A stretch of 64,000 bases of DNA, taken from positions 8,220 to 72,219 of the forward strand of contig CAYFJZ010000005.1 of assembly GCA_964343715.1 (NCBI GenBank), written 5' to 3'. The stretch comes from an uncultured Candidatus Peribacteria bacterium (GTDB lineage Bacteria; Patescibacteriota; Gracilibacteria; UBA4473). Within the stretch, counting starts at the first letter, position 1. Each line of letters begins with the position of its first letter. The notes under the pieces are model-generated. The model did no database searches and was not told where the DNA came from. It saw nothing but the letters and a program-made list of their open reading frames with translations. Positions 4,709 through 38,380 of this stretch are shown piece after piece. The position numbers and the translations under genes are program-made.

Positions 4709-4732
4709 GGACGCAAGATTTTGCGTCCCTAC
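4709..4732 (-). repeat. REP-like GTAG hairpin (GTAG-GGACGCAA...TTGCGTCC)
   Basis: The plus strand reads ggacgcaagattttgcgtcc-ctac; read on the minus strand this is GTAG followed by a palindrome. The same element occurs at 34641-34663 and 36852-36876, all in the same orientation. Confidence 0.6.
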
Positions 4733-33362: not shown

Positions 33363-34418
33363 TCAGCACAAAAAGGCGGTAAACCCGCGTACCCTCTTCA
33401 GCGCCCGAGCCGCTTCTTCATTGTCCTCGGGCAAATGCCGCTCGACCTCCTGAAGCCAACCTTCCAGTTCATCTTCAGCCAGAGCCAGACGCAACGCCCC
33501 GCCAGTGATCGAAACCATCAACGGATGGCCCTCGGGAAGGGTCGAATAAAGACCATCCTGGACCGTTGGGGCGTACATCTCCAGCCCCTTGTGCAAACCG
33601 ACCAGCTGATAACTCAGGCTCTTCCGAGACTCATCATGGTATTTTCTCAGCCATTCAACCGCCTCTTTCCGAAGCCAGGAAGCCATAATCCGATCAAACT
33701 CCTGCTGGCGAGAAAAACGCCCCAGAAACGGCCACCCAAGACGGGTGTAGAAGACTTCCAAAACCGGGAGATTATTAAACTGGATTTTGGAGTTGCTAAA
33801 GAGCAGCCGAGTAAGCGCTGAAGCAAAAGTATCCTTCTTCCGCGCCTCTATATTCCAGGCATTCTTAAATTCCTTGAGCGCACGACGCTGTGGGGTATTC
33901 AGGCCCAATTTCCAAAGGCGAAAAAAGACCCCCAAAAAACCTACAAACAGCACCAATCCTCCAGCCATCACCGCCTGGTGAATCGGCGGAAAAGCCAGGA
34001 CCCAATCCTGCGCTTCTTTCCAGCTCTGAAAAGCCGGCGGAGAGAGATAGAGGGCGCCCCCCCACAGAGCCAAGGCGACAAAAGACACCACCCAGACCCC
34101 CGCCATAAGACCGCGCATAGAGGCCAAAAGAATGCGCACCAACCACCACAGGCCTCCCCACAAAACCACCGCCGCCCCCCAGATGATCTGTGATGGAACA
34201 TCCAGTCCCATAAAAGTGGTCCCAATTTCTTGGGCCCCCTCCAGAGAGTAGGGATGCTGCCAAAAGGTGGCCGCAATCAGAAAAGCTGTTGAAACCCACG
34301 CCAAGAGCACATAAATCCACAACATCCATCCCCCATAAGAGGACGCGACATCAGGGATTTTACGATTTTCCCAGGCGTACCAATCATCAATCCTCAATAC
34401 TTCATCTTCAATTTTCAC
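33363..34418 (-). CDS. polytopic membrane protein with cytoplasmic C-terminal domain (island)
   Basis: 351-aa ORF with a GTG start and GGAGG 8 nt upstream. At least 5 Trp/Gly/Leu-rich TM segments are followed by a soluble domain of about 170 aa. Confidence 0.65.
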   Translation of the reverse strand: MKIEDEVLRIDDWYAWENRKIPDVASSYGGWMLWIYVLLAWVSTAFLIAATFWQHPYSLEGAQEIGTTFMGLDVPSQIIWGAAVVLWGGLWWLVRILLASMRGLMAGVWVVSFVALALWGGALYLSPPAFQSWKEAQDWVLAFPPIHQAVMAGGLVLFVGFLGVFFRLWKLGLNTPQRRALKEFKNAWNIEARKKDTFASALTRLLFSNSKIQFNNLPVLEVFYTRLGWPFLGRFSRQQEFDRIMASWLRKEAVEWLRKYHDESRKSLSYQLVGLHKGLEMYAPTVQDGLYSTLPEGHPLMVSITGGALRLALAEDELEGWLQEVERHLPEDNEEAARALKRVRGFTAFLC

Positions 34419-34582
34419 GAGAATATCCTCCTATAGATACGTGATTCTTCCTAGTTCATTAATCATTAACAAATCGATACCGCAAAGAGCTGTTTTGTGA
34501 GACGCACAATACGGCATCTAAGAAATGAGTAACGAAAATCATTAAAAATGTCAAGCCCCCCTCTTTTTTATCAAGTAAAAAA

Positions 34583-34617
34583 ATGAAGCATGAATCATGA
34601 ATCATGAAGAATGAATC
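34583..34617. repeat. degenerate heptamer tandem array (CATGAAT x5)
   Basis: atgaagc atgaatc atgaatc atgaaga atgaatc. This is the first native-type repeat to the right of the island. Confidence 0.7.
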
Positions 34618-34640
34618 AAAAACAAAAATTCAGAAAGAAA

Positions 34641-34663
34641 GACGCAATATATTGCGTCCCTAC
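34641..34663 (-). repeat. REP-like GTAG hairpin
   Basis: gacgcaatatattgcgtc-cctac; the same family as 4709-4732 and 36852-36876. Confidence 0.6.
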
Positions 34664-34705
34664 AAGATAACTACTTACTCTTTGTTCTTTGTTATTCACT
34701 CATCC

Positions 34706-35470
34706 CTATCCCTCCATAAGATCAATTTCTGGTTTGATTTCTTCTTCTTGCAAATTGTCTTCCGGCCCACCTTGAACATAAATTTTATTCACATCTTCGA
34801 GCTTCTGATAACGCGAAGCCTCAGGATTATAGGCCTGATACATCAGCTCGATAATCTGCTCGGTCTTAAGCGGATTAACCTTGAGTCCACAGTTTTCAAG
34901 CCCCGTCTGAACCACATTCACACGCACATCAAGTTTATCGCGTAATTGGTGAAATTCCTTCTTACGCTGAATAACATCCAGCACTTTGTCTTCGGGGGTA
35001 ATATACTTCAAAAAGTCAGCAATCATCCCCTTTTTCTTGGAACGCAAAGGGGTATAAGGCACCACCACAAAAAATCGCTTTTCCATAATGTCGGCACTCT
35101 CAACCAGGCGTTGAATAAACTCGATATGCTCCACCATCTGCGCTTTGAGGAGATCGTTTTGCTGACGCTCCTTTTTTTCATTGAGGCTATCGATGTAGGG
35201 ATCAATATCCAACTTTCGAGAGCGCACCATAATCTGAACCGGAAAATCCAAAGCGTTCAGAAAATGCTGAAAAGACATAATCAGCGCGTTTTGCTCCTGT
35301 TCAGACTTCAGATCAAAATTAACCGCCCCCACCTCTAAAATCGCTCGTAGGCCTCCGTCTTTGAGCACCAAAGTATCATCATGAACCCCCGCAAATTGCA
35401 AATAACGCTGAGTAGAAAGCAGCTTATTGGGCTTTTTATTATTTACAGACTTGTTATCGCGGGTACTCAT
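34706..35470 (-). CDS. VirB4/TrbE-like protein, N-terminal domain only (no ATPase domain; truncated or split gene)
   Basis: HDDTLVLKDGGLRAILEVGAVNFDLKSEQEQNALIMSFQHFLNALDFPVQIMVRSR parallels the VirB4 N-terminus as I remember it (IVLLEDGSIMTMARIDGVAFELEE...FNTLLRNI...). The ORF stops after 254 aa with no Walker A. The downstream DNA is repeat-filled and non-coding. Confidence 0.6.
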   Translation of the reverse strand: MSTRDNKSVNNKKPNKLLSTQRYLQFAGVHDDTLVLKDGGLRAILEVGAVNFDLKSEQEQNALIMSFQHFLNALDFPVQIMVRSRKLDIDPYIDSLNEKKERQQNDLLKAQMVEHIEFIQRLVESADIMEKRFFVVVPYTPLRSKKKGMIADFLKYITPEDKVLDVIQRKKEFHQLRDKLDVRVNVVQTGLENCGLKVNPLKTEQIIELMYQAYNPEASRYQKLEDVNKIYVQGGPEDNLQEEEIKPEIDLMEG

Positions 35471-35525
35471 GGAGCAGGATATTTATTTTTAGTATTAGGG
35501 TATCTAGTATTCAGTATATTTTTCT

Positions 35526-35969
35526 CTAGGCATTTGGGGAAGACGCACTCAGGTCTACTTTGCCCACAATATCTTTCAGATGATCATCATCAAGACGTTT
35601 GATCACTATTTTTTGAGGCTTTTTCTTTTTGTTTGGAGAATAATTGGTCGTCAGAGAAACAAACTTTTCTCCGCCCCCCTGAATCCAGTATCGGCGCGGA
35701 GGACGAAAGAAAAAATATTCAATCATCAATAGTATAAACTGAAACAGAGCAATTCCCTTAATCGTTATAAAAGCAAAAGCCACCGAAAGCAATGCCGGCA
35801 ACCAAACAAGGAAATAGTCAAAAAGATTGAGCTCATAGTTTTTGCTCAGGTTTACAAACAACAAATACGAGATCCCTCCCCCCACCAACAAAATAATAAA
35901 CTGCTTAAACGTCAGAAACCACAAGATTCTGTCTTCTCGTTGGACGTTCTGAGGAACTTTATACTGCAT
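35526..35969 (-). CDS. PrgI-family (VirB3-like) membrane protein
   Basis: From the ATG at 35969: MQYKVPQNVQREDRILWFLTFKQFIILLVGGGISYLLF.... This is the PrgI pattern (VP....ED+I...LT..Q) followed by two TM helices, immediately upstream of the VirB4-like gene. Confidence 0.65.
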   Translation of the reverse strand: MQYKVPQNVQREDRILWFLTFKQFIILLVGGGISYLLFVNLSKNYELNLFDYFLVWLPALLSVAFAFITIKGIALFQFILLMIEYFFFRPPRRYWIQGGGEKFVSLTTNYSPNKKKKPQKIVIKRLDDDHLKDIVGKVDLSASSPNA

Positions 35970-36017
35970 AGTTTCAAAAATTCTCAATATTCTACCACAA
36001 AAGGAGGCCGCAAACAA

Positions 36018-36118
36018 GAGGAATAAGGAAGTAGGAATAAGGAATATGGGGTAATGAAACAATTAAATGGTTTACCTCTTGGAGTCCCTTATTCCTTATT
36101 CCTCATACCTAATTCCTC
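36018..36118 (+). repeat. about 100-nt long-hairpin element built from GGAATAA-type heptamers with a 34-nt apical loop (copy 1)
   Basis: Arms are gaggaataaggaagtaggaataaggaatatgggg and cccttattccttattcctcatacctaattcctc. The loop contains gtttacctcttggagt. It is homologous to 38381-38488. Confidence 0.7.
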
Positions 36119-36777
36119 TCACCACTGACTAATTTCCCCGCCACCACCACCCCATAAACCTCCTTAACACCAGCTTTTTTCAATATTTTCGCAGCCGATT
36201 GCATCGTAGCGCCAGTCGTCACCACATCATCCACTAAAACCACAACATTGGGCCATTTTGTGCCTTTCTTTACTTCAAAAACCCCCTGCACATTAATCAA
36301 ACGTTCTTTTTTGGTCAGCTGTGCCTGAACACGAGTTTTTCGTCGTTTTACCAGTCCATCACACACTTTACCCCACCCTCTTTTTTCCATTCCCAAAGCC
36401 AAAATCTGACTCTGATTAAATCCCCTCCACATCAAACGAGTCCGATGAAGCGGAATGGGAACCAAGACCACATGATCAAATTTTTTATTCACAAAAAAAG
36501 GCGTCATGCCTCTCAAAAGATAATCCTCCATCCCCCGCCCCCCACGATACTTAAATATTTCAATTAAGCGCTTCACTCGGTCATCGGCATAATCGGTCCC
36601 CACCCAAACGCTTTCAAGCCCCTCCAAAGATCGTCCCAAATATGATCCTGAAGGAAAATCCCCATGAACCTCACACAACCAACTCCCCTCTCGATCACAG
36701 ACCAAACACTTCGCCGGAAAAACCGCCTCAAAAAACCACCCAAAAGCCCTCCTCATCGCTCTTAAAACACTTTTCAT
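36109..36777 (-). CDS. comF: ComF-family phosphoribosyltransferase-domain protein
   Basis: N-terminal Cys motif (CLVCDREGSWLCEVH) and a PRTase motif (VVLVDDVVTTGATMQSAAKILKKAG). Confidence 0.8.
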   Translation of the reverse strand: MKSVLRAMRRAFGWFFEAVFPAKCLVCDREGSWLCEVHGDFPSGSYLGRSLEGLESVWVGTDYADDRVKRLIEIFKYRGGRGMEDYLLRGMTPFFVNKKFDHVVLVPIPLHRTRLMWRGFNQSQILALGMEKRGWGKVCDGLVKRRKTRVQAQLTKKERLINVQGVFEVKKGTKWPNVVVLVDDVVTTGATMQSAAKILKKAGVKEVYGVVVAGKLVSGERN

Positions 36778-36851
36778 TCCCTCCTTCTAACTCCAACAGA
36801 AAAAGAAATCAAGTGAAGGATTTAAGGTTCGCTTCATATTTATTACAAAAA

Positions 36852-36876
36852 GGACGCAAAATATTGCGTCCCTACT
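36852..36876 (-). repeat. REP-like GTAG hairpin
   Basis: ggacgcaaaatattgcgtcc-ctac. Confidence 0.6.
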
Positions 36877-36904
36877 CGTTTGACTACTGACTATTACACT
36901 ATTT

Positions 36905-37396
36905 CTAACGATAATGCTGGAACCCTCCCGCCCCAGGATTCATATTTCCAGCCTTTTGCTGACCCGTATCTATCAACTGAGTGATCTGAGAGATAATCTG
37001 GTCGTATGAAATATAGTTCATAAAATCAAAACCAAACATCTTTCCGACAATTGAAACCGCGAAAAAACTCATAATCGTCACAATCAACCCCACAATTGCG
37101 TAACGAATGGTGTTTACGGCCTGTTTTACCTTTTCGTCGTTTCCTCCCGAAAGAATAAAACTCATTCCCCCCACAAATACAAAAACGGCCGAAAGAGCGG
37201 CCGCAATAATAAAGGCGTACACCACAAACATCATCACAATCTCCTGAATTCCCCCATCAAGAGCATATTTGGTCTTGGGGACATAAACCGCTTGCTCCTG
37301 TCGATATCCCTGACTCGGAGCAGGATTCGTACGGGTATAAGGGTTGTTGTACGAATCATTATTGTACTGAACTGCCGGTGGGTAGGTATTGGCCAT
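36905..37396 (-). CDS. VirB2/TrbC-like (T4SS pilin-type) membrane protein
   Basis: Two TM helices joined by a short loop (VFVFVGGMSFILSGGNDEKVKQAVNTIRYAIVGLIVTIMSFFAV), the hairpin typical of T4SS pilin-like proteins of CPR genomes. The N-terminus is Asn/Pro/Tyr-rich. Confidence 0.6.
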   Translation of the reverse strand: MANTYPPAVQYNNDSYNNPYTRTNPAPSQGYRQEQAVYVPKTKYALDGGIQEIVMMFVVYAFIIAAALSAVFVFVGGMSFILSGGNDEKVKQAVNTIRYAIVGLIVTIMSFFAVSIVGKMFGFDFMNYISYDQIISQITQLIDTGQQKAGNMNPGAGGFQHYR

Positions 37397-37467: not shown

Positions 37468-37722
37468 CTAGGCCTGTTCTACAACTTTGACACTAATTTT
37501 CTCGCCTTCCTTTGCGCCCATAACTCGAACCAAAGTTCGAACCGCTGAAATATTTTGACCTCGTTTTCCAATCAGTCGCCCCATATCATCCGAAGCTACT
37601 TGGACCTTAATCATAACGCCTCGATCATCAGAAACGACCTCAACGTTGATCTGGTCTTTTTCTTTACAGACCTGATCCAACACATAACGAACAAAATCTA
37701 CAGCGCTTTCGGTAACACTCAT
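37468..37722 (-). CDS. KH-domain RNA-binding protein (YlqC/UPF0109-like)
   Basis: From the ATG at 37722: ...QINVEVVSDDRGVMIKVQVASDDMGRLIGKRGQNISAVRTLV. Canonical position immediately after rpsP. Confidence 0.8.
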   Translation of the reverse strand: MSVTESAVDFVRYVLDQVCKEKDQINVEVVSDDRGVMIKVQVASDDMGRLIGKRGQNISAVRTLVRVMGAKEGEKISVKVVEQA

Positions 37723-37762
37723 TTCACGCAATATGATAAAGACAAATCCCCCCTCCGACAAA

Positions 37763-38221
37763 TTATTCCTCTTTCTTTTCTTCTTCGGCGGGTTTTTCTT
37801 CTGCTTTGGCTTCAGATTCTTCAGCTGGAGCCTCCGGCGTTTCTTCTTTTGGAGCTTCTTCAGAAGATTCAGCTGCTTCCTCACCAGCGTCTTCGGCAGG
37901 CGCTTCTTCAGCTACTTCTTTTTTGGGTTCTTCTTTTTTGGGCTTCGTAGGTCGTTTTTTAATAAATTTTTCGACCTCGCTCACTCCTTGTTTGAGCAAT
38001 AAACGAGCTACGGTCTGTGAAACCTCCGCTCCGTTAGAAATATACTTCTTCGTCAAATCCATATCAAAAACCAACTCCCCTTTTCCACCATCGCTCAAAG
38101 GGTTCAAATACCCCAGACGAGCCACAATCTTTTTCTGAACGGCCCGGGCCTTCTCGGCCGCGACTAAATCATAAAAAGGTCTCTTTTTTCTTCCCCTTCG
38201 AGCCAAACGAATCGTAAGCAT
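37763..38221 (-). CDS. rpsP: 30S ribosomal protein S16 with Glu/Lys/Ala-rich C-terminal extension
   Basis: From the ATG at 38221: MLTIRLARRGRKKRPFYDLVAAEKARAVQKKIVARLGYLNPL. Confidence 0.9.
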   Translation of the reverse strand: MLTIRLARRGRKKRPFYDLVAAEKARAVQKKIVARLGYLNPLSDGGKGELVFDMDLTKKYISNGAEVSQTVARLLLKQGVSEVEKFIKKRPTKPKKEEPKKEVAEEAPAEDAGEEAAESSEEAPKEETPEAPAEESEAKAEEKPAEEEKKEE

Positions 38222-38380
38222 GATACTAGAACTTAAGCGTATAAACCCCACCCCTCAGCTCGCGCAAGTGTAACTATACAACATACCTTGTCAAATGTTC
38301 CTCCTTTTTCTCCGTTGCAATCTCTCTTTTGTTCCCTAAAATCCGGGTTGAAAACAAAACCAAAGAGTTCTCTCAAAACA

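Follow-up and report, generated by a model that had tools for sequence, protein, structure and literature searches.

An intact TrsD-like protein paired with PrgI in a Candidatus Peribacteria genome whose VirB4 ATPase is encoded elsewhere

The genome of an uncultured Candidatus Peribacteria bacterium (GCA_964343715.1; Peribacteria, GTDB class Gracilibacteria, Patescibacteria) contains a 254-aa ORF which very probably codes for an intact and conserved stand-alone TrsD-like protein, the VirB4 of Patescibacteria being encoded in two pieces. The ORF is found in a window of 64,000 nt, i.e., the whole stretch of DNA analysed here (contig CAYFJZ010000005.1, positions 8,220-72,219 of the forward strand), and belongs to a group of four ORFs, coding for a pilin, ComF, PrgI and the 254-aa protein, that were all confirmed on the minus strand with unchanged coordinates (Table 1). 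The first-pass annotation had left two explanations for a VirB4 gene ending after its N-terminal domain: the loss of the ATPase part on arrival of a foreign island, or an N-domain encoded as a separate protein in this lineage. The latter proved correct and holds for the phylum, not for this lineage only.

Table 1. Features of the PrgI/TrsD-like region and of the separate VirB4 gene (window positions, unless a contig is given)
Feature	Position	Strand	Basis or remark
TrsD-like protein, 254 aa	34706..35470	(-)	N-terminal positions of VirB4 NCBIfam models and TrsD/TraD
PrgI/VirB3-like small membrane protein, 147 aa from ATG	35526..35969	(-)	PF12666
ComF, ComFC-type phosphoribosyltransferase-fold competence protein	36109..36777	(-)	TIGR00201, PF00156
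VirB2-like T4SS pilin, two-helix hairpin	36905..37396	(-)	PF18895
Palindromic terminator-like hairpin, GGGACGCAATATATTGCGTC then T-rich run	34640..34659	(-)	47 nt past the stop of the TrsD-like gene
The same terminator-like palindrome, second copy	36850..36873	(-)	between pilin gene and comF
VirB4 ATPase, 685 aa	contig C1:399675-401732		intact; Walker A and B

Identity of the TrsD-like protein and of the separate ATPase

Profile searches place the 254-aa protein at the N-terminal end of the VirB4 models: it matches positions 102-233 of 894 in NF045975 (VirB4_plasma, E 1.9e-10) and positions 18-170 of 792 in TIGR00929 (E 9.6e-6), and it also matches positions 21-143 of 201, or 61% of the profile, in the TrsD/TraD model NF041427 (E 1.9e-9). 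The score against the latter is 37.7 bits, far from the curated cut-off of 200 bits; thus, to judge from its sequence, the protein is a remote TrsD homologue and stands outside the strict staphylococcal/enterococcal TrsD/TraD subfamily. Members of the TrsD-like family match VirB4_plasma in 89/89 cases and the TrsD model in 82/89. The protein is soluble, with no hydrophobic segment, and has neither a Walker A nor a Walker B motif, which means that the Walker A/B NTPase C-terminal domain expected of a VirB4 ATPase (TIGR00929/CagE_TrbE_VirB) is absent from this ORF. These significant N-terminal matches bear out the early reading of the gene as VirB4 N-domain only.

The AF2 model of the protein (pLDDT 85.3, pTM 0.76) was compared with the PDB by Foldseek, and the best 14 matches were all TrwK/VirB4, with a probability of at least 0.99, the next match having 0.16. 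The match to TrwK is moderate (query-normalised TM-score 0.40-0.46, E ~1e-3, aligned TrwK residues not reported); the link of the family to TrwK comes from this fold search only, since the family profile retrieved nothing from the PDB sequences at E up to 1. In full-length VirB4, the homologous counterpart of this stand-alone protein is the N-terminal subdomain, i.e., the first 170-230 residues.

A search of the genome for a separate VirB4 ATPase gene, which had been suggested earlier, identified an intact one on contig C1, and not directly downstream of the TrsD-like gene. Its 685-aa product contains Walker A (AKSGAGKS) and Walker B (LLVIDE), covers positions 267-892 of VirB4_plasma and 139-726 of TIGR00929, and matches positions 175-734 of 752 of a CD1110-family model with 380 bits (cut-off 325). 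On these alignments, the two proteins are complementary pieces, the C1 ATPase supplying the VirB4 model positions that are missing from the 254-aa protein. The neighbours of the C1 gene, inspected by eye from the ORF starts, are housekeeping-like or of no evident function; no other T4SS genes were evident among them by the same inspection. The source genome also contains four ORFs with a TraG-D_C domain (T4CP-like).

The gene preceding the TrsD-like one had been proposed as PrgI, and this was confirmed by 38.3 bits against PF12666 (gathering score 27) and by two hydrophobic segments. A longer frame would start at the TTG in 36062; however, this codon falls within a heptamer-armed hairpin element and PrgI orthologs are mostly of 141-161 aa, so that the gene likely starts at the ATG of 35969. 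The TrsD-like gene, starting at 35470, comes directly after the PrgI stop at 35526. In a comparison of 13 relatives' PrgI/TrsD-like loci, based on all-against-all BLAST of their ORFs, this adjacency was kept in 12/13, and no conserved third neighbour, such as the missing VirB6, was found in the 13 loci; beside the TrsD-like gene, the relatives have nothing equivalent to the 351-aa membrane protein of 33363-34418.

As in pGO1-type systems, the VirB4 of Patescibacteria consists of a small TrsD-like protein and of a separate ATPase of ~600-700 aa, starting where TrsD ends; in the source genome, the ATPase piece is the C1 gene, and the genes for PrgI and the TrsD-like protein form the tight pair of the window. 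In R388, the N-terminal domains of VirB4 contact VirB3, and PrgI has been modelled as binding PrgJ 1:1 (PMC12857230). By analogy with R388, the membrane protein PrgI may bind the TrsD-like protein, which could then dock the ATPase hexamer, and the three proteins would together reconstitute the VirB3-VirB4 engine at the inner membrane for the T4SS of Patescibacteria. This engine would probably drive the assembly of VirB2-like pilins or a secretion needed for the host-dependent lifestyle; no VirB6 was found in the genome.

Conservation and gene order in Patescibacteria

Relatives from the same family and class (Peribacteria/Gracilibacteria, Patescibacteria) were represented by 41 genomes. An intact TrsD-like ortholog, with an open frame of ~230-310 aa, is present in 37/41 of them and the VirB4 ATPase in 38/41; two genomes (G003 and G029) are missing both. 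In a phylum-wide sample of 61 Patescibacteria genomes, each gene was found in 59/61. A library of 1.8 billion proteins yielded 2767 TrsD-like matches, and the best 150 of these 2767 are all 157-443 aa long. The first-pass annotation had recognized that orthologs of about 250 aa in many relatives would indicate a normal stand-alone protein, and this is what was found: the stand-alone N-domain protein is a phylum-wide feature, normal in nearly all bacteria of the candidate phyla radiation and not lineage-specific, and the arrangement is common also to the pGO1-type conjugation systems of Gram-positive bacteria.

The position of the gene relative to virB4 depends on the class. In 52/56 genomes of the other Patescibacteria classes, virB4 immediately follows the TrsD-like gene, whereas the two genes adjoin in 0/35 genomes of Gracilibacteria, where the two VirB4 pieces are 80-550 kb apart. 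Both the TrsD-like family and the exception of Gracilibacteria are already known from Quinonero-Coronel et al. 2025 (Microb Genom, PMC12102498), who reported that, among the T4SS components of Patescibacteria, TrsD homologues are the most abundant, that their homology to the VirB4 N-terminus is remote, and that TrsD and VirB3 are encoded near virB4 except in Gracilibacteria. The present analysis adds the count of the PrgI/TrsD pairing, the adjacency tallies and the fold match, and it provides a clear-cut case of the layout of Gracilibacteria.

As for the two upstream genes, their first assignment as comF and VirB2-like pilin agrees with the profile matches. ComF matches TIGR00201 with E 2.2e-25 (89.7 bits, against a curated cut-off of 233.55), is above the cut-off of PF00156 and has a CxxC motif visible in the sequence; the pilin scores 31.3 bits against PF18895 (gathering cut-off 26.6), with hydrophobic stretches spanning residues 46-85 and 93-123. 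Pilin orthologs are found in 41/41 relatives. The pilin gene is followed by comF in 24/25 genomes of the same family and in 0/13 genomes that represent other Gracilibacteria families, and PrgI/TrsD adjoins pilin/ComF only in the source genome and in one other genus.

Alternative explanations

The 254-aa ORF could be what remains of a full-length VirB4 after the insertion of the downstream island removed its ATPase part: it is devoid of Walker motifs and a foreign-composition island starts ~290 nt downstream of it. This explanation deserves hardly any credence, because the orthologs of 37/41 relatives, with open frames of 232-313 aa, stop at the same point in other genomic contexts, where no island is present, a finding that refutes the proposed loss on island arrival; moreover, the best 150 library matches are all short. 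The stretch 34419-34705 is indeed non-coding and repeat-bearing, as had been noted, with a 7-nt tandem repeat at 34583-34618; a terminator-like hairpin, present in 3 copies in the window (0 expected) and in 15 genome-wide, comes after the stop codon, tblastn of the genome's VirB4 detected no ATPase remnant in the window, and an intact ATPase of complementary coverage is encoded on C1. A truncated VirB4 pseudogene was thus rejected, the orthologs not being markedly longer and the window having no ATPase remnant.

The pilin, ComF, PrgI and TrsD-like proteins might also work as one ComB-like T4SS module for DNA uptake, a link that the first-pass annotation had drawn from their arrangement. Indeed, the four genes follow one another in the same orientation both in the source genome and in one relative (G006), pilin and comF are neighbours throughout nearly all of the family, and comF occurs in T4SS loci of class ABY1 (PMC12102498). 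Such a module is nevertheless unlikely, since in G013 and G015, two relatives with single-contig genomes, PrgI/TrsD is located 74-130 kb from pilin/ComF, in most other relatives the two pairs are on separate contigs, and the pairing of pilin with comF does not extend to the 13 genomes of other families. In addition, the pilin gene and comF have a terminator-like hairpin between them. A ComB-type system is characterised by cluster conservation, by homologues of VirB6 to VirB10 and by a role in transformation; of these homologues VirB6 was searched for, and PF04610 (TrbL/VirB6) had no match in the source genome. Furthermore, the T4SS of Saccharibacteria is essential for epibiotic growth, and this essentiality is not attributable to ComEC (review PMC12857230). 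The four-gene cluster is a local juxtaposition; therefore, a ComB-like role in DNA uptake is unsupported.

The distance between the two VirB4 pieces in Gracilibacteria would fit partly independent functions too. In this class, the PrgI-TrsD pair could function independently of VirB4, serving for example a T4CP-like ATPase, of which the four TraG-D_C ORFs of the source genome would be candidates; this independence, if real, would account for the genomic separation and for the lack of adjacency to virB4. It is quite improbable, however, since the TrsD-like gene and VirB4 co-occur, both being absent from G003 and G029, and the VirB4 of the class is still without the N-terminal subdomain provided by the TrsD-like protein. 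Besides, the genes of a single machine are often dispersed in reduced genomes. A related proposal, to which a similarly low probability is assigned, explains the uncoupling of PrgI-TrsD from virB4 in Gracilibacteria/Peribacteria by its present action as a free-standing membrane adaptor, which would serve more than one motor (e.g., the four T4CP-like proteins) or would link the family-conserved pair of pilin and ComF to DNA uptake; if true, it would imply a modular T4SS engine assembled in trans. The two-piece VirB4, with PrgI and the TrsD-like protein as partners of the C1 ATPase, is thus the preferred reading. For annotation, the appropriate label is TrsD-like T4SS component rather than truncated VirB4 or pseudogene, and the source genome, whose intact VirB4 is on another contig, should count as T4SS-positive. 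In the Saccharibacteria strain ML1, which has been used for transposon sequencing, trsD and prgI are listed as essential by a source that PMC12102498 cites. The general interest lies in the fact that the T4SS of Patescibacteria is essential for the epibiotic growth of Saccharibacteria and that TrsD, though uncharacterised, is the most widespread part of this Patescibacteria system, as published in 2025.

Comparison with known systems

The ComB system of Helicobacter pylori resembles the present case in having VirB2-, VirB3- and VirB4-like parts alongside ComF in the same genome. It differs in that no VirB6, the one component of VirB6 to VirB10 searched for, was found here, the cluster is not conserved and the source organism is monoderm; a role in DNA uptake is, as said, unsupported.

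TrwK of R388 (PDB 7O41, 7O42, 7O43, 8RTB, 8RTD) matches the TrsD-like protein at the level of fold, and the N-terminal domain of the R388 VirB4 contacts both VirB3 and the membrane (PMC12857230). However, in TrwK this domain is fused to the ATPase in one 823-aa polypeptide, and its identity to the TrsD-like protein is ~10%.

A likeness is also found in the staphylococcal plasmids pGO1/pSK41 (MPF-FATA subclass), where TrsC-TrsD-TrsE represent a VirB3-like protein, TrsD and a VirB4 ATPase, coded by separate genes in the same order. Unlike these, the genes of the window are chromosomal and outside any conjugative element, the VirB4 ATPase is unlinked, and the NF041427 score of the protein is far under the curated cut-off.

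The systems described in Patescibacteria (PMC12102498) follow a pattern of which the source genome is one more case. Their TrsD homologues, like the protein studied here, are small, show remote homology to the VirB4 N-terminus and are the most widespread T4SS component, and they are accompanied, as in the source genome, by PrgI/VirB3, a shorter VirB4 and VirB2-like pilins. The layout reported for Gracilibacteria, with TrsD and VirB3 away from virB4, is the same as that of the Peribacteria genome, and the two agree in everything of substance.

A VirB4 encoded in two pieces

The four genes that the first-pass annotation had read in this region, coding for a VirB2-like pilin, ComF, PrgI and a protein limited to the VirB4 N-terminal domain, are all supported by ORF reading and profile matches. 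PrgI and the pilin pass their Pfam models and contain two hydrophobic segments each. The 254-aa product gave no Pfam match of note; among NCBIfam models it is recognized by N-terminal portions only of VirB4 (positions 18-170 of 792 in TIGR00929; 102-233 of 894 in NF045975, E 1.9e-10) and by the TrsD/TraD model NF041427 (positions 21-143 of 201, E 1.9e-9), and it is here called TrsD-like. Scanning of its sequence revealed neither a Walker motif nor a hydrophobic segment.

Features of the four-gene region and of related loci in the same genome (window coordinates unless a contig, C, is given)
Feature	Position	Strand	Evidence or remark
Four co-oriented ORFs	34706-37396	minus	ORF reading
VirB2-like pilin	36905-37396	minus	Pfam T4SS_pilin, 31.3 bits (gathering score 26.6)
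ComF	36109-36777	minus	TIGR00201, E 2.2e-25, score below the model's cut-off; PRTase domain over its own
PrgI	35526-35969	minus	Pfam PrgI, 38.3 bits (gathering score 27)
TrsD-like, 254 aa	34706-35470	minus	NCBIfam: VirB4 N-terminal positions; TrsD/TraD model
Hairpin with GGAATAA-type heptamer arms	36018-36118		between comF and prgI
Palindromic terminator-like hairpin	34640-34659		47 nt past TrsD-like stop codon
Terminator-like hairpin with T-run, palindrome copy	36852-36871		between pilin gene and comF
Third palindrome copy	4709-4728
VirB4 ATPase, 685 aa	C1:399675-401732		only strong VirB4 match outside the window
TraG-D_C domains	C6:120889-121116, C4:70364-70606, C1:184257-184463, C7:47665-47850		Pfam

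The search of the whole genome (1.87 Mb, 9 contigs, the window lying at C5:8220-72219) for a separate ATPase gene identified a single strong candidate, whose 685-aa product contains both Walker motifs, A as AKSGAGKS and B as LLVIDE. Its score of 380 bits exceeds the cut-off (325) of the CD1110-family VirB4 model, although the alignment is confined to positions 175-734 of 752; it also covers positions 267-892 of VirB4_plasma and 139-726 of TIGR00929. Given this complementary coverage, the two proteins tile a full-length VirB4 with almost no overlap.

The first-pass annotation had favored a VirB4 whose ATPase part was lost upon arrival of a downstream foreign island, with a separately encoded N-domain as the alternative. 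The 287 nt downstream of the gene are indeed non-coding, as it had described, and contain a hairpin and a 7-nt tandem repeat. Truncation is refuted by the short orthologs, by the intact ATPase gene and by the lack of any ATPase remnant in the window after tblastn with the 685-aa protein. Intact orthologs (frames of 232-313 aa, 31-64% identity) are found in 37/41 genomes from the family and class of this organism, the very outcome named beforehand as decisive against a loss, and the alternative, which had already been published, is the correct one. Exhaustive phmmer analysis against 1.84 billion representative proteins (E up to 1e-3) returned 2767 matches, the best 150 of which are all 157-443 aa long and matched at their N-terminus, none being of VirB4 length. 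The VirB4 ATPase is present in 38 of the 41 genomes; two of the 41 (G003 and G029) lack both genes. In six single- or long-contig assemblies (G013, G015, G016, G026, G039 and G040) the two genes are 80-550 kb apart.

Gene order across the phylum

Among 61 genomes spread over the phylum, a profile from 89 family members detected the TrsD-like gene in 59, and the ATPase is likewise present in 59, as a frame of about 600-800 aa aligning from approximately residue 60-90 of the 685-aa protein. Outside Gracilibacteria, the class of Patescibacteria (CPR) to which this organism belongs, 52/56 genomes with both genes have the TrsD-like one on the virB4 strand and no more than 1 kb upstream; the other four are three members of family f24 and one case at a contig edge. 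Inside Gracilibacteria, the two are adjacent in none of 35 genomes with both. Thus, the split of VirB4 is a phylum-wide trait, and the move of its small piece is particular to this class. In the three f24 genomes (G046, G073 and G098), which belong to another class, the genes are on different contigs, suggesting a second, independent uncoupling.

PrgI is located immediately upstream of the TrsD-like gene, sometimes overlapping it, in 12 of 13 relatives' loci, which revealed no other conserved neighbor. The pilin ortholog is directly followed by comF in 24/25 genomes of the window's family and in 0/13 from other Gracilibacteria families; in one of the latter (G035, C5:73563-76074) it is directly upstream of virB4, indicating that its partner gene differs between families. 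Apart from this genome, only G006 has the PrgI/TrsD-like pair next to the pilin/comF pair; G016 has them inverted with 4 kb in between, and in G013 and G015 the distance is 74-130 kb. The four-gene cluster is therefore a local arrangement that brings together two pairs, each conserved on its own. The proposed link to ComB-type DNA uptake is not supported, in view of this separation, the hairpin between pilin gene and comF, and the absence of a detectable VirB6 homolog in the genome; a ComB-like machine made of the four products would be speculation.

Other features of the loci

The palindrome GGGACGCAAnATnTTGCGTC occurs in three perfect or near-perfect window copies of 19-20 nt (chance expectation 0), and a loose regular expression matches 15 times genome-wide. 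The copies at 34640 and 36852 are just 3′ of a minus-strand gene, with T-rich sequence next; the palindrome resembles a shared terminator or a REP-type element. A TTG-started extension of PrgI (36062) crosses the heptamer-armed hairpin, so the ATG at 35969 is favored as start. The S16 and KhpA-like KH-domain ORFs (37468-38251) overlap as called, with long Lys/Glu-rich tails, C-terminal and N-terminal, respectively; since KH orthologs have 86-96 aa, the true KH start is probably further downstream.

One small plus-strand gene separates the orphan ATPase gene from a 2164-aa ORF (C1:402771-409265, minus strand) situated about 1 kb upstream. Four large ORFs (764-1014 aa) each contain a TraG-D_C (type IV coupling protein) domain over the Pfam cut-off: multiple T4CP-like paralogs in a 1.87-Mb CPR genome, none near virB4 or trsD.

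Fold, proposed function and comparison with known systems

An AlphaFold2 model of the TrsD-like protein, built from an 89-sequence alignment, is confident (mean pLDDT 85.3, pTM 0.76), most of the stretch 20-215 scoring over 90. The top 14 Foldseek matches in the PDB are all TrwK/VirB4 of plasmid R388 (probability 0.99 or more each, E 1e-3 to 3e-2, query-normalized TM-score 0.40-0.46), the next having probability 0.16; the family's sequence profile found nothing in the PDB. Taken together, these results make the link to diderm VirB4 remote but specific.

In R388, the VirB4 N-terminal domains touch VirB3 as well as VirB8 and serve as membrane anchor for the ATPase, and PrgI has been modeled as a 1:1 binder of PrgJ/VirB4 (review PMC12857230). 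By analogy, the two-TM, VirB3-like PrgI probably recruits the soluble TrsD-like protein, and both would supply the short ATPase with the N-terminal subdomain that it lacks; the VirB3-VirB4 inner-membrane engine thus rebuilt would drive the extraction and assembly of pilins, or the transfer of substrates. The complementarity of the pieces, the strict pairing of PrgI with the TrsD-like gene, and the co-occurrence of the latter with VirB4, both missing in two genomes, support a functional link, physical contact being presumed.

Quinonero-Coronel et al. (2025), searching 3,035 Patescibacteria genomes, reported TrsD homologs, remotely related to the VirB4 N-terminus, as the T4SS component found most often in this phylum, located close to virB4 except in Gracilibacteria. 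They also reported that a mere 4.7% of the VirB3/PrgI homologs of Gracilibacteria lie near virB4, that VirB6 is absent or undetectable in this class, that VirB2-like pilins are widespread, and that T4SS loci of the class ABY1 often include comF; in Saccharibacteria strain ML1, TrsD and PrgI homologs are essential for epibiotic growth (PMC12102498). The arrangement seen in the window is therefore already described, and the published pattern is independently reproduced here on a different genome sample.
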